DNA from: a virus
Taxonomy: Duplodnaviria > Heunggongvirae > Uroviricota > Caudoviricetes
IMG/VR virus record: IMGVR_UViG_2548876868_000025
DNA: 10,643 bases
Reading direction: 5' to 3' (one strand)
The notes beneath the pieces were generated by a model, which was not told the origin of the DNA, did not search any database, and saw only the letters and a list, made by a program, of their open reading frames with translations. This document shows positions 1-10,643 of this stretch, one piece after another. How positions within the stretch are numbered: position 1 is the first letter of the stretch; each line of letters begins with the position of its first letter. The translations under genes and the position numbers were made by a program.

Positions 1-291
1 TTACCGCCGTAACCGCTCCGGCTTCTTCCAGTGGTACGTAATTTTTGCTTTTTCCCTGTACGTCTGCACGCGGCGACGGTAGGCCAGCATTTCAAGAACG
101 CGGATCCGTATGTTGCGCATATCCACATCATTAAGCTGGATACCATCACGGCGCATCACCTCAGCAACCACACGCGCGTAATTTTCGGCGGTCACGCTGT
201 CCGGCTGCGCGGTCTGTTCGTCAGCCTGCTGGCTGATTCCGGCGACGCGGCGGATTAATCCCAGTAGTTCGGCTTCTGTCATTGTGCCCAC
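1..291 (-). CDS. hypothetical protein (93-96 aa)
   Basis: Complete ORF with stop at 1-3; start is GTG at 291 or ATG at 282 (MTEAELLGLIRR...). No family recognised. Lies just beyond cos1. Confidence 0.4.
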   Translation of the reverse strand: MGTMTEAELLGLIRRVAGISQQADEQTAQPDSVTAENYARVVAEVMRRDGIQLNDVDMRNIRIRVLEMLAYRRRVQTYREKAKITYHWKKPERLRR

Positions 292-317
292 ATCGCTCTG
301 ATAGTCTGGTGTCGTAG

Positions 318-537
318 GGTCCTTCCTGGAATTATGGCCCGTTACGGGGCGGCGACCTCGCGCGTTTTCGCTATTTATGAAAATTTTTAGGGAAAAAGCA
401 GATCCGTTCTTCTTCTCTGTAACAGAATGTTTAACAATGAAAATATTAAAAAAAGAAAGGATCTTACACGAGGCATTTTAGCCAGAAAATGCCATTATCA
501 GATCCTTTCTCATTTTTGTTCAATAATTGCGCGTCTG
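318..537 (+). other. cos1: lambda-type cohesive-end site (cosN 347-358, followed by a lambda-like cosB region)
   Basis: Plus strand reads cgttacg GGGCGGCGACCT cgcgcgttttcgctatttatgaaaattttt, nearly identical to the phage lambda left end as recalled. Downstream blocks ccgttcttcttc, aaaagaaagga, tcctttctc and tttttgt mirror lambda cosB R-site/IHF-region sequence. Confidence 0.75.
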
Positions 538-1080
538 TTACTCGCCTTTCTTCTGTAGCAACTTTTCCGGTACGTTTCCGGTTGTTTCTTTCAAGTAATC
601 AGCCAGTATCTGTGGGAGGTTGTCGGCAACTCTGGCACTGGCATTACAGGCTTTAACCACTTCCCTTTTAAGCCTATCCAGCATGGCGGGGGTAATCTGT
701 GGGAAGCTCCTTTGCATAGTAAGCGGGAGGCTGTCCATGATTGATGAAATCTGACTCGCCAGCTTTGAAAGCGCGTACAGGCAAAACTCAGTATCAATCA
801 CGTTACCGCGATCGCGCTCGTTTTTAAGTTCCTGCGCCTCCGCCTGTACTGTCAGTAATCTGATCCTGACTCGTAAGAGTTCATCATCATCAATCTCGCC
901 TTTGTCGTTTGTAAGCTGGCTAATTGCATTGTTAACCCTATTGTCTATCACGCTGGCAACATCATAAAACGCCTCACGGCCTTTACGTTCAACGGGTGTC
1001 ACTCCCCACTTGTCGAACGCTGTCGCACTTACACGGCAGCTTTTCGCCATGTTTTTTTTGTTCATCAGGTGCGATTTCAT
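538..1080 (-). CDS. terminase small subunit, lambda Nu1-like
   Basis: 180 aa. The C-terminal half aligns by eye to lambda Nu1 (RLLTVQAEAQELKNERDRGNVIDTEFCLYALSKLASQISSIMDSLPLTMQRSFP versus RLTRAQADAQELKNARDSAEVVETAFCTFVLSRIAGEIASILDGLPLSVQRRFP). N-terminal NKK...W motif is in a similar position; alternative start is ATG at 1065. A cos site lies about 135 bp upstream, as in lambda. Confidence 0.85.
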   Translation of the reverse strand: MKSHLMNKKNMAKSCRVSATAFDKWGVTPVERKGREAFYDVASVIDNRVNNAISQLTNDKGEIDDDELLRVRIRLLTVQAEAQELKNERDRGNVIDTEFCLYALSKLASQISSIMDSLPLTMQRSFPQITPAMLDRLKREVVKACNASARVADNLPQILADYLKETTGNVPEKLLQKKGE

Positions 1081-1120
1081 TAATACACCAACTTAATTAC
1101 TGCTTCAGGTTGGTGTATTG
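1081..1120 (-). promoter_or_regulatory. Inverted repeat (11-12 bp arms, 16-nt spacer) abutting the terS start codon
   Basis: taATACACCAAC (1081-1092) and GTTGGTGTATtg (1109-1120) are reverse complements. On the minus strand the 3' arm ends 2 nt before the terS ATG. Confidence 0.5.
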
Positions 1121-1180
1121 TTTGCATCTTTCCCTTTTCATTCATAAAGATAGAGCAAACAACAAAACCACCACCGCCAA

Positions 1181-1256
1181 CCCGAAAAGGCTCATAAATA
1201 GCGAAAATCCGCGAGGTCGCCGCCCCGTAACGGGTCCATATGCCGGAAAGGACCCG
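1181..1256 (-). other. cos2: lambda-type cohesive-end site (cosN 1214-1225 on the minus strand), upstream of and colinear with the Nu1-like gene
   Basis: Minus strand reads acgggtcctttccgg...cgttacg GGGCGGCGACCT cgcggattttcgctatttatga. The core 23 bp is identical to cos1 and the upstream flank resembles the lambda right end (ACGGGTCCTTTCCGG). Confidence 0.75.
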
Positions 1257-1711: not shown

Positions 1712-2056
1712 TTATCGCGCCAGCGGCTGAACGGATACGCCAGAACCCGCAAAGGCGGCGCATTTTTTCGCATCGGTGTCGACGCTCTCAGGCCAGTTAA
1801 CGGCGGCGATATTAAATATCCCCGTCTTATAGCACTGTGCTGATTTCTGCGTCGACGTGTCAACGGGGTACGAGGTCAGATAAACAGCCTTGCCAGATTC
1901 CTGACCATCCCACGGCTTAAACTCGCCATTGTCCGCCAGCATCAGCGGGGTAAATTCCTGAATAACGCCAGCATCAGCGGCAAAATGTACCAGCGTCGTT
2001 GATACCTGCTGACTGCCTGCAAATAACTCAATGTATGGAGTGTTCATAGAATCCAC
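1712..2056 (-). CDS. head decoration protein, lambda gpD-like
   Basis: 114 aa. TPLMLADNGEFKPWDG...CYKTGIFNIAAVNWPESVDTDAKKCAAFAGSGVSV parallels lambda gpD TPLMLDTSSRKLVAWDG...[35 protein letters not shown]. Only 2 bp separate it from the capsid gene. Confidence 0.8.
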   Translation of the reverse strand: MDSMNTPYIELFAGSQQVSTTLVHFAADAGVIQEFTPLMLADNGEFKPWDGQESGKAVYLTSYPVDTSTQKSAQCYKTGIFNIAAVNWPESVDTDAKKCAAFAGSGVSVQPLAR

Positions 2057-2058
2057 CG

Positions 2059-3114
2059 TTAACCAATTTTGACGGTAACAAATTTTCGAATATCTGCCGG
2101 AACAGGCTGCGGTGCGCTGTGTGTCTGCACGTACTCAATCGCCGGATCGCCGTCTTCAATCCAGTTTTTCGGGTAAAACATGTTTTGCGTTGCGCCCGTT
2201 CTTACCGCTTCCTGTTCCATAATCGCACCATAGGCCACCAGCCCTTTATTGTTGGTGTTGCCCAGGACCAGCAAATCAGGCTCAAGGAAATATTTTTCTG
2301 TGCCGTCGCTGTCAGTGTATTTGCCGGAATAGACGATAAGGGCCAGATCACCAAGATAGCCTTTAAAGCTCACCACTTCGCCCAGGTTTTTACATGCCAG
2401 CTCTGCGGCGGATTCTGAACCACGGGAGAGATCGTACAGTTCACGGAATTTTTTAAAGCTGCGTAACATGCGCCATACATCAACGCCCATAATCATGACG
2501 TTGGCGGGGCAACCTGCCTGATCTGCGTATAGTTCAATGTCATATATTGGGTCGTGTATGTCTTTATCCTGCTCAGACCATTTTTTACCGTCGGCCTGCT
2601 CTATGATGTTTTTTTCCGGTATCTTCCAGTCGATTTCATAGCGTTCTATGCCTTCGCCCTCAATGATGTTTTTTCCGGTCGTTACCGCATTCACCGCCAG
2701 CCATTCAACGCGTGCCTTAATGGCGTTTATCTGGCGGCGCATGTTGCCAGTAATCAGGCGCATACGGCGGTAGGTAGGATCGTTAAGCTGTGCCGGATCT
2801 TCTCCAGCCATGCGCATTATTGTTTTTAATGGATCGATTTCGTGTTTTGGCTTCATGTAGCCAGGGCGGATAATGCTGGTTTCGTACCCTTTATCGCGCT
2901 GAACCTGGCTGCCAACCATAGGCGAACAAAACGCCGACATAGTGACTTCTTCAATATCCAGGTTATCTAACATGATGTCCTGCGTGTTGAATGTCGCCAC
3001 GTTCGGGAAAAACAGCGCGGTAAACAGCGGACTAAATTTAAATTCCGCAATATCCTCGCGATTCAGGTACGCGAAAAGCTGGTGTGTGTTAAGTGCTATT
3101 GCTTTGACTGCCAT
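2059..3114 (-). CDS. major capsid protein, lambda gpE family
   Basis: 351 aa. Multiple blocks match lambda gpE: FKFSPLF/FKFDPLF, RPGYMKPKHEIDP/TPGYVKPKHEVNP, EDPAQLNDPTYRRMRLI/EDPQNLADPAYRRRRII, YPKNWIEDGDPA/YPKNWVTTGDPA. Length matches gpE (341 aa). Confidence 0.9.
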   Translation of the reverse strand: MAVKAIALNTHQLFAYLNREDIAEFKFSPLFTALFFPNVATFNTQDIMLDNLDIEEVTMSAFCSPMVGSQVQRDKGYETSIIRPGYMKPKHEIDPLKTIMRMAGEDPAQLNDPTYRRMRLITGNMRRQINAIKARVEWLAVNAVTTGKNIIEGEGIERYEIDWKIPEKNIIEQADGKKWSEQDKDIHDPIYDIELYADQAGCPANVMIMGVDVWRMLRSFKKFRELYDLSRGSESAAELACKNLGEVVSFKGYLGDLALIVYSGKYTDSDGTEKYFLEPDLLVLGNTNNKGLVAYGAIMEQEAVRTGATQNMFYPKNWIEDGDPAIEYVQTHSAPQPVPADIRKFVTVKIG

Positions 3115-4882: not shown

Positions 4883-5068
4883 TTTTACGCCTCACTTTTT
4901 AAAGCGTCTCGCTTCGTCTCACTTGAGATTTTTGTGTTTTGTATGCGCATGTTTCATAAGTGTTTTTTTTACGCCTCACTTTTGAGCATGTATACAGGTG
5001 AGAAAGTGAGCAATCGTGTTAATATTTTGTAAAAACCTCACCATTACTCACTTTTGCTACTCACTTTT
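4878..5068. repeat. Iteron array (candidate replication origin) immediately 3' of the replicase gene
   Basis: CTCACTTTT direct repeats at 4878, 4891, 4975, 5047 and 5060, a variant CTCACTTGA at 4918 and an inverted copy in GTGAGAAAGTGAG (4998-5010). An AT-rich tract lies between them (4921-4970). Confidence 0.6.
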
Positions 5069-6465
5069 TACAGTGGTCCTACATCATCACCATCAATGTA
5101 AATCACGGCGTCTTTTTCCAGTTTGGCTAACCATCGCCGCATATTTTTCACGTCATACCCAAGCCGTTTCATGTCATCACGTAACAGCGGGATCGTGCAC
5201 TTGTCGCCGTTCTGTGTACGTGAACGGATGCACCCCCATAGCGCGGTATGGTTTTCCGTCTTGTTGCCTGCCTCCTCGATGCGCTCCAGTTCAACGGGAG
5301 GGCGCGGCTTATCCACCACCACCAGCGACGTGATTAACTCCCCGTCAGCGTCGGTAAAAAGCTCCACCACGCGTAAGTCATATGCGGCTTCTTTGAGTTC
5401 CTCCGCGTCCTTCATTTTGGTGCATGAGATAACCAGCGCTTCGCTGCCTGCGTCCTCCCTGCGTATCCGGTATTCAGCGTCCAGTGATGCACGAAATGCA
5501 CTGGAACCACGCGCCCCCTTTGTTTCATCCTTGCCGGAATGGTGAACCACCAGCACCGTGGCCCCTGTGCGCCGTTTCAGTTCGTCACAACCACGGATAA
5601 ACGCCCCCATATCACGGGAATCATTTTCATCATTACCACCAAAGCAACGCGCCAGCGTATCCAGAATAATCATGCGTACAGGTTTACCCGTTTCCCGCTC
5701 CACCTGACGGGCAGCGATAACCATTTCATCAACATCAAACGGGGCAGCCGGAAAGATGGGACGGTTTACCAGGTACAGATTTTTCACCTGCTCACCGTGC
5801 ACAACTTCCCACGCTCTCACGCGACGCGGTACACCAATACCGCCTTCACCAACCACATAGAGGACCGCACCATGTGCAACCCTGCGGCCTCCCCAGTGGC
5901 GACCCGTTGAAACGTGACACGCCCACGAACCAGCAAGGAACGACTTATATGAACCGCTCGCCCCGTATATGCTGCATAGCGACGATGCCGGAATAATCCC
6001 CTTTACCACGTAATCTAATTGCGTGTCGTATCCGGCAGATCCAACGCTCATCGGTAGCGTGGTTTTTCGCTGGTGGCTCAGGCTTTCCCCGCGTTCCCAT
6101 GTCTCCCTAAGCCGTGGAAGCTGGTCGCTCCATTCCTCCAGCAATTCGAAATTTTCAGAAAACAGGCGCGCTTCCTGGACTCCTGCGATTGCCAGTTTCG
6201 TGGCGATGGTTAACAACTGCACTTCGTCAATATTTCCGGCACGTATCACTTTCGCCCTGAACCGACCTTTATCAACAATCTGCAAGTTATCCAGTTCGCT
6301 TAACTGATAACGCCCCAGGTAAACGGGAGGGACTGGATCGCCTGCTTTTTTGGCCTGTGCAATGATGTAGTGCTCTGCAAATGAGTGAGCATTATCACCC
6401 GCAAAAATAACCGCTTCGGTGTGTTTATCTTTCGGTAACAGTTTTACATTCGGTGCCAGTTTCAT
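5068..6465 (-). CDS. replication protein with a RecA-like/AAA ATPase core (primase-helicase-type replicase of P4/PICI-like elements)
   Basis: 465 aa. Walker A GASGSYKS and Walker B-like MIILDT followed by an acidic stretch; unassigned N-terminal domain of about 150 aa; C-terminal DNA-binding-like tail. ATGA overlap with the upstream gene. Confidence 0.85.
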   Translation of the reverse strand: MKLAPNVKLLPKDKHTEAVIFAGDNAHSFAEHYIIAQAKKAGDPVPPVYLGRYQLSELDNLQIVDKGRFRAKVIRAGNIDEVQLLTIATKLAIAGVQEARLFSENFELLEEWSDQLPRLRETWERGESLSHQRKTTLPMSVGSAGYDTQLDYVVKGIIPASSLCSIYGASGSYKSFLAGSWACHVSTGRHWGGRRVAHGAVLYVVGEGGIGVPRRVRAWEVVHGEQVKNLYLVNRPIFPAAPFDVDEMVIAARQVERETGKPVRMIILDTLARCFGGNDENDSRDMGAFIRGCDELKRRTGATVLVVHHSGKDETKGARGSSAFRASLDAEYRIRREDAGSEALVISCTKMKDAEELKEAAYDLRVVELFTDADGELITSLVVVDKPRPPVELERIEEAGNKTENHTALWGCIRSRTQNGDKCTIPLLRDDMKRLGYDVKNMRRWLAKLEKDAVIYIDGDDVGPL

Positions 6466-7001: not shown

Positions 7002-7151
7002 TTAATTACCGTCCGTTGTTTTATTTTCTTTCGTGCCAAGTAAGAAAAAGGCCGCTCTTATCAGTTCGGATATTGCAGAAAGCGCATCAGCCGCATCATC
7101 AGATACGCCGGAAAATTCCTGTTTCAGGGAATTAAAACGATCATCACGCAT
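7002..7151 (-). CDS. hypothetical small protein (49 aa)
   Basis: ATG at 7151 overlaps the upstream stop (ATGCGTGA); its stop lies 1 nt before the next ATG. The longer version from 7199 would overlap the upstream gene by 56 nt. Could be non-coding. Confidence 0.3.
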   Translation of the reverse strand: MRDDRFNSLKQEFSGVSDDAADALSAISELIRAAFFLLGTKENKTTDGN

Positions 7152-7365
7152 AACCCCCCCCATTTTCACAATCAGCAATAAGAATATTTTTAGCGTCATT
7201 CAGCGACCGCGTGGCGGTGTATCGGATACATTCCAGGGCGAACAATGTGTATTCTTCCCGTTCTTCCTTTTGTGCAAGCCCTGCTGTGCATTCAATATCA
7301 ATAAGTGCGTGCATCAGCGTAGTGAGCGCGGCGGCTGCTGCGTCCGGTGTGGTTTTATTGTGCAT
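7144..7365 (-). CDS. hypothetical protein (73 aa)
   Basis: ATG at 7365 with AGGGGA 7 nt upstream; overlaps the last codons of the Icd-like gene B. No family recognised. Confidence 0.45.
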   Translation of the reverse strand: MHNKTTPDAAAAALTTLMHALIDIECTAGLAQKEEREEYTLFALECIRYTATRSLNDAKNILIADCENGGGYA

Positions 7366-8697: not shown

Positions 8698-8904
8698 TTA
8701 AGCAGCCGTTACGCGCGCTTCCTGTTCGCGTTCTTTCATCCAGGCGATTACGTCATCCTCATACCATCCCCGACGGCGTAAACCAACACGAAAACCCTGC
8801 GGGAATTCTCCGGCGTTGATCATGCTTTGCAGCGTGCTGTCTGCCTTGATGTGGATAAGTTTTTTTACTTCCTGGCGAAAGATGACTTTTTTGATTGCTT
8901 CCAT
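8698..8904 (-). CDS. alpA: AlpA-family transcriptional regulator / excisionase-like protein
   Basis: 68 aa. ...STLQSMINAGEFPQGFRVGLRRRGWYEDDVIAWMKERE fits the AlpA/Vis pattern (HTH, G-FP, conserved W, C-terminal W). AAGG SD upstream. Located just downstream of int, as in P4-like and PICI elements. Confidence 0.85.
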   Translation of the reverse strand: MEAIKKVIFRQEVKKLIHIKADSTLQSMINAGEFPQGFRVGLRRRGWYEDDVIAWMKEREQEARVTAA

Positions 8905-9401: not shown

Positions 9402-10643
9402 CTACACGGCCCGAATACCCCTTTTACCACTGGCAAGGGTTACGCCCGTTGCCGCCGCCTCGACAAATTCGCCCCACCAGCGCATAAGCACAATGCGTTT
9501 TTCTATGTAGTTGCTCCGGTTGTATGCCCGTCTCACTTCGTTGGTGTCCACGTGGGCTAGTGCGGCCTCGATTACGTCCGGCTCAAATCCTTCTTCGTTC
9601 GCTGCGGTGCTGAATATGGCGCGCATACCGTGAGAAACCAGAATCCCGCCAAACCCCATCCGCCGCAATGCTGCGTTTGCGGTCTGGCTGTTCATAGGCT
9701 GCCGTGGGTCTTTCAGGCTCGGGAAAACATAATCGCGGTGGTGGCTGATTGGTTTCATGGCCTCCAGTACCGCCATGGCCTGACTACAAAGCGGGATAAC
9801 GTGATCACGCCGCATCTTCATGCGTCCGGCGGGTATCGTCCATTGTTGCGCGTCCAGGTCGATTTCTTCCCAGCGTGCTGACGATGCTTCAACCGGACGG
9901 GTTACAGTCAGTAACTGCCATTCAATCAGTAATCTGGTCTGCCGTTCTGTTGCCGATACTGATAAAGCCTGCATAAGCTCCGGCAACTGTTCGGGGCGGA
10001 TTGTTGGCATATGTTTTTTTACAGGGGAGGGGAACGCCTTACGCACATTCATAGCCGGATTGGTATCAATCAGCCCACTGTTGGCGGCGTAATCCATTAC
10101 CTCATTAATTCGCTGCAAAACCCGCTTTAGTGTTTCCAGGTTGCCACGTTCCTTGATGGGGGTAAGCACCTCAACGAACCTGCGAGCGGTCAGGGTGTCT
10201 ATTGGCGTGTTGCCGATGAACGGGAATACATATTTTTCCAGCGAACGCCAGATGTCTTTAATCGTGTTGGGGGCCAGATTCTGGCTGATTTTCACCTGGT
10301 ACCATGCCGCCGCCACATTTTCGAACGTGTTCCCTTGTCTTCGGGCCTCTGTCTCTCTTTTTTGCCTCTCGTGGTCCTGCGGGTCAGTTCCGGCACTGAT
10401 TAACGTCCTGTACTCGCTACGGCGTTTTCTGGCATCAGCCAGGGAAACATCTTCAAGCGATCCAAAACTCAGCAATATTCTTTTTTTGTCCGATGGTCGG
10501 TAGTAGGAAAATCTCCAGAGTTTTGATCCAGACGGTTTGACCAAGAGAAAAAGCCCTCCGCCGTCCTGCAGGGTGTACTCCTTTTGCGCTGGTCTGGCTG
10601 CTTTGATCTGCACTGTGGTTAATGGGTGTGTTTTTCTCGCCAT
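9402..10643 (-). CDS. int: tyrosine site-specific integrase, P4 family
   Basis: 413 aa. N-terminal arm-type DNA-binding region (LTTVQIKAARPAQKEYTLQDGGGLFLLVKPSGSKLWRFSYY) and C-terminal catalytic region with HGMRAIFST (H-x-x-R) and a tyrosine in RRAYNRSNY. The start codon is the last three bases of the window. Confidence 0.95.
   Translation of the reverse strand: MARKTHPLTTVQIKAARPAQKEYTLQDGGGLFLLVKPSGSKLWRFSYYRPSDKKRILLSFGSLEDVSLADARKRRSEYRTLISAGTDPQDHERQKRETEARRQGNTFENVAAAWYQVKISQNLAPNTIKDIWRSLEKYVFPFIGNTPIDTLTARRFVEVLTPIKERGNLETLKRVLQRINEVMDYAANSGLIDTNPAMNVRKAFPSPVKKHMPTIRPEQLPELMQALSVSATERQTRLLIEWQLLTVTRPVEASSARWEEIDLDAQQWTIPAGRMKMRRDHVIPLCSQAMAVLEAMKPISHHRDYVFPSLKDPRQPMNSQTANAALRRMGFGGILVSHGMRAIFSTAANEEGFEPDVIEAALAHVDTNEVRRAYNRSNYIEKRIVLMRWWGEFVEAAATGVTLASGKRGIRAV

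Follow-up and report, generated by a model that had tools for sequence, protein, structure and literature searches.

Two convergent lambda-type cos sites with different cosB regions flank the small terminase gene of an EcCICFT073-family island of Escherichia coli

Known islands with paired cos sites

EcCICFT073 of Escherichia coli CFT073 is the prototype of a family of Gram-negative phage-inducible chromosomal islands (PICIs) that belong to the cos type (Fillol-Salom et al. 2018, 2019). Here, we analyzed the packaging region of a related element, catalogued as IMG/VR virus record IMGVR_UViG_2548876868_000025; the window denotes that whole stretch of 10,643 nucleotides. It corresponds to an E. 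coli island of ~11 kb that lies between tRNA-Pro and yejO, and its integrase gene (int) at one end, AlpA-type regulator, replication module, size, and attachment site assign it, at the sequence level, to the EcCICFT073 family of PICIs as a version encoding a small terminase (TerS). An earlier note on this DNA had described two lambda-type cos sites facing each other across a gene resembling lambda Nu1, and had regarded two such sites as unusual for an integrated cos-packaged element. For the EcCICFT073 family, that premise did not hold. EcCICFT073 has the same pair, published as cos1 (upstream) and cos2 (downstream and inverted) (PMC6092414, PMC6739421), so that two convergent cos sites are the norm for this family rather than an anomaly. 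The core of the finding is already published for the family, of which the window island is a TerS-type member.

The functional background comes from the prototype. Cloned EcCICFT073 cos1 and cos2 each permit plasmid transfer by lambda and phi80, deletion of cos1 lowers transfer of the island, and only the double deletion abolishes it (PMC6092414, PMC6739421). RppA forms a heterocomplex with phage TerS and acts via the cosB of cos1 (PMC6092414, PMC6739421). Induction, replication, and high-frequency transfer by helper phages have been published for this prototype only (PMC6092414, PMC6739421). Its authors left the reason for two cos sites open (PMC6739421), the 2022 review by Murialdo and Feiss deals with the upstream PICI site only (PMC9026076), and our literature search found neither an explanation of the second cos nor a report of inversion of the cassette between the two sites.

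In the EcCICFT073 sequence fetched from the CFT073 chromosome, one cosN lay on the plus strand 90 nt upstream of rppA and the other on the minus strand ~200 nt downstream, with cosQ outermost at both; the assignment to cos1 and cos2 was fixed from the supplementary sequences of the published work. The window cosN at 1214–1225 pairs with cos1 and that at 347–358 with cos2; hereafter, these are the upstream and downstream cos (the earlier note had numbered them cos2 and cos1, respectively). The two islands share the backbone, the gene order, the convergent topology, the outer position of cosQ, and the cosN and cosQ sequences themselves. They differ in that EcCICFT073 encodes a 144-aa Rpp that needs phage TerS, whereas the window encodes a 180-aa TerS with a C-terminal half of the type that binds the large terminase (TerL), and their upstream cosB sequences are different. 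Moreover, EcCICFT073 cos2 was described as lacking a phage cosB, whereas the downstream cosB of the window consists of AGATCC-type R repeats in the lambda arrangement and has a prophage match.

The TerS-encoding islands of strains IHE3034 and 18098 (Fillol-Salom et al. 2018) belong to the same family and likewise encode a TerS homologue. A published IHE3034 primer sequence matched the region downstream of terS in one of the loci compared here (L009), and we found no published description of the cos sites of either island. Among staphylococcal islands (SaPIs), the pac-type ones with a small terminase are similar in that the island TerS redirects helper TerL to island DNA, and of the cos-type SaPIbov4 and SaPIbov5, two putative cos sites have been reported for SaPIbov4. 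However, SaPIs reside in unrelated bacteria and involve unrelated terminase families, and SaPI TerS islands use headful (pac) packaging.

Relative to this published work, our comparison showed that the second cos has a phage-type architecture, is interchangeable, and is present or absent alongside the same TerS, and that the cos-bounded cassette is found in both orientations in nature.

The two cos sites and the small terminase between them

The cosN 12-mer GGGCGGCGACCT, the lambda cohesive end, occurred exactly twice in the window, once on each strand (Table 1). The count expected by chance was 0.04, no more than one match was seen in any of 200 shuffles, and a chance origin of the pair is rejected. 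Both copies lie within inverted-repeat arms (317–387 and 1185–1255) of 71 nt each, which are 83% complementary and 797 nt apart. Each arm contains GGGTCCT, identical to lambda cosQ, which begins at the lambda distance of exactly 30 nt upstream of the nick, and the ~35 nt directly after cosN are near-identical to lambda at both sites. The sites are convergent, with a full-length Nu1-type terS between them. These data agree with the earlier note, which had described two inverted cohesive ends ~860 bp apart, pointing at each other within conserved flanks.

The protein encoded between the sites is a full-length homologue of lambda Nu1. It matched Pfam PF07471 (Phage_Nu1; E 1.4e-22, 80.5 bits against a cut-off of 30), PHROG 57 over residues 1–174 (E 7.8e-53), and Nu1 itself with 36% identity over residues 3–180 (E 3e-33), including the C-terminal TerL-binding region; at the other end, its sequence aligned to the Nu1 DNA-binding domain. 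An assignment as an Rpp protein (139–154 aa, similar to RppA, RppB, or RppC) was rejected given its length of 180 aa, the lack of similarity to RppA in BLASTP (E = 1), and the extent of the PHROG 57 match, which in RppA covers residues 7–47 only, the DNA-binding part. A PDB sequence search with TerS returned no match at E ≤ 1, to neither Nu1 nor RppC (whose structure is published), NCBIfam gave no matches for the five proteins tested, and the AlphaFold2 model of TerS built from a 13-sequence alignment (pLDDT 48, pTM 0.28) was too poor for use. The DNA-binding domain (residues 1–48) is near-invariant in the family, down to Enterobacter and Citrobacter homologues with 56–58% overall identity, and the C-terminal part varies among homologues. 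No terL was found in the island gene set, and the large-terminase partner must come from a helper. Separately, a protein identical to the TerS allele P0057 is encoded on contig JARWGE010000012.1 in an island context without the capsid, decoration, and hyp137 genes, where terS directly follows SSB, PerC, and a small open reading frame.

At the downstream site, AGATCCKTTCT had only three matches in the whole window, namely the R3, R2, and R1 equivalents listed in Table 1 (expected count, 0.15; shuffles reaching three, 0 of 200). This site combines cosQ at −30, a 12-nt cosN, a conserved spacer, and R3(+)/R2(−)/R1(+) with lambda spacing. The long lambda-like cosB that the earlier note had placed at the 3' end of terS was thereby mapped repeat by repeat in the alignment to lambda cos, and the match is not due to chance. 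The cosQ–cosN–cosB order and the R3–I1–R2–R1 arrangement are those of the lambda cos/Nu1 and lambda–21 specificity system studied in the Feiss laboratory, in which a specificity class is set by an R sequence and a recognition helix that match (PMC9026076). The R3–R2 segment, at the place of lambda I1, is rich in A and T and can be aligned with the I1 region of lambda, although the exact IHF consensus WATCAANNNNTTR is absent from it and from the rest of the window. The end of this cosB lies 28 nt from the terS stop codon. A lambdoid prophage in strain 98889 has a cos that shares ~86% identity with this site from cosN through R1; there, the same three R sequences are followed by terS, terL, and portal genes, and the downstream site therefore has a functional phage cos architecture. 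In lambda, a single cos lies directly upstream of terS–terL, whereas the island lacks terL and has two cos sites, the phage-type one of which lies inverted at the terS 3' end. The R2/R1 17-nt inverted repeat (448–516) also encloses a smaller hairpin and is followed on the minus strand by a run of seven T's, and this phage-type cosB could double as a terminator for terS.

The content of the downstream slot varied among islands. Among E. coli loci with hyp93 that were fetched via five close TerS alleles, all but one (L045) had the convergent pair. In four of the five alleles, cosN was identical at both sites, ~860 bp apart; for the P0057 allele, seven of eight loci had a second cos with a different cosN, and L045 had no second cos. 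KE47 (L019), with the same TerS type, also lacks the second cos, and in both cases the terS stop is 11 nt from the start of the next gene (hyp9x). The TerS proteins of L045 and of L039, which has the second cos, are nevertheless identical. Relatives outside E. coli have a single cos. Where the slot is filled, CFT073 has a cosB with CATGTCCGG-type repeats, L009 has another cosB version, and L039 has a different cosN (GGGCGGGAGCAT) with ATGGGACA repeats, similar to the cos region in phages mEp460 and phi458. Altogether, at least four phage-type versions were found, in convergent orientation in every case. By these comparisons, the second cos is a modular, interchangeable add-on to the island.

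The upstream site has the cosQ, cosN, and spacer of a lambda-type cos, but its similarity to lambda ends after ~bp 45, and the alignment to lambda revealed no R3/R2/R1 repeats in its cosB, consistent with the short, divergent cosB that the earlier note had seen upstream of the Nu1-like gene. Instead, a single conserved block (GGCGGTGGTGGTTTTGTTGTTTGC) occupies the R3-equivalent position, an arrangement that has been put forward for PICI and N15 cos sites (PMC9026076). A GGTGGTGG...TTGTTG block at bp ~48–71 from cosN was common to all islands with this TerS DNA-binding domain, and was kept despite another cosN in KE47 (GGGCGTCAGGCG) and in the flipped cassettes of L008 and L009. At the same position, a related GGTGGTGGTG block was found in the Enterobacter and Citrobacter homologues, and the block was different in cassettes encoding RppA or a phage-21-like TerS. 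RM10466 and L008 agree in their backbone proteins, in the 3' half of terS, and in the downstream cosB, and in RM10466 a phage-21-like DNA-binding domain is paired with a 21-like upstream cosB. From this pattern and the shared block, the upstream cosB tracks the DNA-binding domain of TerS and the downstream cosB does not.

Further observations concern the same region. The RM10466 terS (L010 820–1404) is a mosaic, with a 3' half near-identical to island-type terS and a 5' half close to lambdoid phage TerS of the 21/PhiR5_1 type, which implies that recombination within terS joined the two parts at the domain boundary. At the R3-equivalent position, the TerS-type cosB has GGCGGTGGTGGT (window 1155–1178, minus strand) and the RppA-type cosB of CFT073 has ACACCACCACCAC (L005 2607–2625, plus strand), the same triplet-repeat motif on opposite strands, although TerS and RppA are unrelated outside the DNA-binding fold. 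The KE47 island (L019, ~2440–2470, minus strand) joins the island-type cosB to its different cohesive end and has an abortive-infection family gene nearby. In E. coli strain 135 (L020), where the rpp gene between the sites is degenerate, the single-base cosN variant GGGCGTCGACCT was present at both sites (1761–1772, plus; 2284–2295, minus), which points to one of two causes, gene conversion from arm to arm or joint selection, and suggests concerted evolution of the two arms. In a simple scan of the upstream cosB, from cosN to terS, no sigma-70 promoter was detected.

Table 1. Features of the cos-bounded cassette and of the rest of the island, with positions in the window.
Feature	Position	Strand	Basis or remark
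hyp93, conserved last island gene, 93 aa	1–282	−	PHROG 1561; start adjoins cosQ side of downstream cos; same gene after EcCICFT073 cassette
Inverted phage-type cos module (cosQ–cosN–cosB), counterpart of EcCICFT073 cos2	283–537	+	Between terS stop and hyp93 start; absent from some same-TerS islands; ~86% identity to prophage cos
cosQ-like GGGTCCT	317–323	+	30 nt upstream of nick
Whole cos-bounded cassette, arms 317–387 and 1185–1255	317–1255		Inverted-repeat search; flipped relatives
cosN 12-mer GGGCGGCGACCT, lambda cohesive end	347–358	+	Exact sequence match
R3 equivalent AGATCCGTTCT	400–410	+	Distance to cosN as lambda R3
R2 equivalent AGATCCTTTCT (minus-strand reading)	454–464	−	Inverted relative to R3 and R1, as in lambda
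R1 equivalent AGATCCTTTCT	500–510	+	With R2 forms inverted repeat I3 (arms 448–464 and 500–516)
TerS, full-length lambda Nu1 homologue, 180 aa, no adjacent terL	538–1080	−	PF07471, PHROG 57, Nu1 alignment
Island-type cosB upstream of terS	1081–1213	−	Block GGCGGTGGTGGTTTTGTTGTTTGC at 1155–1178, bp 48–71 from cosN (R3-equivalent position), kept across islands of same TerS type
cosN 12-mer of upstream cos, counterpart of EcCICFT073 cos1	1214–1225	−	Exact match and published sequences
cosQ-like GGGTCCT	1249–1255	−	30 nt upstream of nick
Terminator-like hairpin and T-run, end of capsid-gene transcript just before cosQ	1263–1282	−	Lies directly against cosQ
hyp137, conserved 137-aa gene beside cassette	1286–1699	−	Weak match to C-terminal (Nu3/scaffold) part of head maturation proteases
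gpD-like decoration protein	1712–2056		
gpE-like major capsid protein	2059–3114		
RepA helicase	5068–6465		
AlpA-like HTH regulator	8698–8904		
Integrase (int)	9402–10643		

Cassette orientation and island context

We searched complete E. coli genomes with a synthetic query representing the flipped junction. For the terS type, full-length matches were obtained in five genomes: 2014C-4587 with two others in which the region was identical or 99.9% identical, and PM4-5 with one other of about the same identity to the query. In these genomes, everything inside the two cosN is inverted and the cosQ arms stay with the flanks. The flip breakpoints fall within the shared core CCCGTTACGGGGCGGCGACCTCGC, and those of L008 and L009 lie inside the 24-nt core that holds cosN. 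Since each site has its cosQ on the outer and its cosB on the inner side, both cos remain complete after a flip.

The rppA type showed a similar picture. The flipped-type junction was matched in 27 genomes (≥80% coverage), compared with 64 for the standard junction. Fifteen of the 27 belonged to one group of WP4-like hits and represent clean flips, one of which was inspected; the remaining 12 fell into other hit groups, in which the two loci inspected (L020 and L021) were degenerate or rearranged, and the interpretation of all 27 as clean inversions was rejected. In the inspected strain WP4-S17-ESBL-08, the RppA and hyp93 accessions are identical to those of CFT073 and rppA lies on the opposite strand. 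Both of its cosQ arms are of the hyp93-side type, which points to homologous recombination with gene conversion. The chromosome of strain 2014C-4587 (NZ_CP027342.1) has two family islands (2430649–2431116 and 3212913–3214013) with terS cassettes in opposite orientations, and identical island backbones were found to carry different cassettes.

The 3' module has the order known from EcCICFT073: the gpE-like and gpD-like genes, hyp137, the cos-bounded packaging gene, and hyp93. Nearly all island genes lie on the minus strand, and SSB, PerC, and Icd-like genes are also present. hyp137 aligned with positions 495–566 of PHROG 53 (head maturation protease; E 1.9e-8), the region corresponding to the Nu3 scaffold in lambda gpC, and the island may thus encode capsid, decoration, and scaffold proteins. 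Scanning genome contigs for hyp93 gave a single locus, from Shigella. The annotation shows two Icd-like cell-division inhibitor genes next to each other, and a frameshifted pseudogene (RefSeq) at ~7002–7365 (L001 20753–21116) lies between the Icd-like and the DUF4222/RepA replication genes.

Proposed dual-specificity packaging and its alternatives

We propose that the cassette is a packaging module of dual specificity, in which both lambda-type cos sites are complete and differ in cosB specificity. Among the three explanations offered by the earlier note, dual packaging specificity was the best supported, by the co-variation of upstream cosB and TerS, the prophage match, and the modularity of the second site, and we consider it probable. 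The DNA-binding domain of the island TerS would recognize its own cosB beside the upstream cosN, and its C-terminal half would recruit a helper large terminase, resulting in island-specific packaging. A helper TerS–TerL that recognizes AGATCC-type R sites could use the downstream cos directly. Termination would need an approach from the cosQ side, and because the two sites are inverted, each would terminate only at its own copy one island-length away. Packaging from either site would then yield whole island units, in opposite directions, whereas two sites in direct orientation would, by established lambda biology, be expected to give genomes lacking or duplicating terS. The inverted arms would also allow the segment between the cosN to flip by recombination.

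Several points weigh against this proposal. Deletion of EcCICFT073 cos2 raises transfer mediated by lambda or phi80 (PMC6092414, PMC6739421), and neither phage matches the cosB of that site, so that the second site looks costly with those helpers. The TerS islands of IHE3034 and 18098 were not mobilized by resident prophages in the 2018 study. Physical linkage contributes to the co-variation of the DNA-binding domain and the upstream cosB, making the pattern supportive rather than decisive. Binding of the island TerS to helper TerL is presumed from sequence conservation. In addition, the AGATCC-type R2–R1 segment matched 463 places across 438 genomes (median, one per genome), so that a phage with the matching site is usually not co-resident.

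As for other explanations, an artefact of assembly, for instance through a collapsed or chimeric repeat, which the earlier note had named as a possible refutation, is practically excluded, because the same arrangement occurs in many independent draft contigs and in ~490 of 5,426 complete E. coli genomes, each with ≥80% of the region in one collinear piece; nothing was found in its favor. A programmed invertible switch, by which the cassette would flip often within a strain to toggle the packaging direction or terS expression, draws on the existence of both orientations, in the five terS-type genomes between unchanged flanks and in the rppA-type flips. Like the Mu G, P1 C, and Salmonella H segments, the cassette is bounded by short inverted repeats. 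However, unlike those segments, its repeats are the cos sites themselves, its inversions are rare and inherited, and no invertase gene was found in or beside it in the window and locus annotations. All ~490 window-type genomes, ~120 contigs with the five exact close TerS alleles, and four CFT073 assemblies had the standard orientation, and flipped states were shared within sets of similar genomes, the pattern that rare, inherited events would leave. The same-type cosQ arms of the verified rppA flip point to homologous recombination, and 12 of the 27 flipped-type rppA matches include degenerate cassettes. Of the invertible segment suggested earlier, a rare natural polymorphism in other islands stands; as a programmed switch it is very improbable, and inversion is best explained, from these comparisons, as an occasional product of recombination between the arms. 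Alternatively, the terminase itself might move the cassette, by cutting at both cosN, after which the fragment is religated either way or exchanged between islands and phages. The released fragment would have a 5'-GGGCGGCGACCT overhang at each end and the backbone two complementary overhangs, and religation would require neither homology nor a recombinase while shuffling packaging specificity. The breakpoints of L008 and L009 inside the core with cosN, the different cassettes on identical backbones, and the strain with two islands in opposite cassette orientations are compatible with this route, which we nevertheless regard as doubtful.

The remaining alternatives concern the function of the second site. 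As a decoy, a phage-type cos would titrate or misdirect helper terminase, or cause unproductive cutting, and so interfere with the helper. Its phage-type cosB fits this idea, PICIs of this family do interfere with helper packaging (PMC6739421), and the increased transfer of EcCICFT073 after cos2 deletion leaves room for a site kept for a reason other than transfer. Yet Rpp alone explains the interference of the prototype, an intact and correctly placed cosQ would not be needed in a decoy, and cloned cos2 supports productive plasmid transduction, with residual transfer lost only in the double deletion; we consider a decoy unlikely. It seems just as unlikely that the second cos is a relic without a selected role, neutral or mildly harmful, left by recombination at cos with lambdoid phages. 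The presence or absence of the site with an identical TerS protein (L039 versus L045), its absence from KE47 and from non-E. coli relatives, and the harmless deletion of cos2 with lambda or phi80 would all be compatible with a relic. In contrast, the module is intact with lambda-exact spacing, at least four phage-type versions occupy the same slot and always converge, and the two sites of strain 135 share one cosN variant. A simple leftover is also at odds with the fact that a phage cos lies upstream of terS in direct orientation. We therefore retain dual-specificity packaging as the preferred explanation.

Taken together, our comparisons indicate that one cos site of these islands tracks the DNA-binding domain of the island TerS or Rpp, and that the other slot holds interchangeable phage-type cos modules. 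An interchangeable cos slot suggests how an island might gain access to more helper phages, and the inverted arrangement of the sites would keep packaged genomes complete. The comparative evidence makes the published question of the two cos sites testable. Islands of this type are present in hundreds of genomes of Shiga-toxin-producing E. coli (O157:H7, O26, and O145), and many of the ~490 carriers are O157:H7, O26, O145, or O55:H7 strains; which phages mobilize these islands bears on gene flow in these pathogens.

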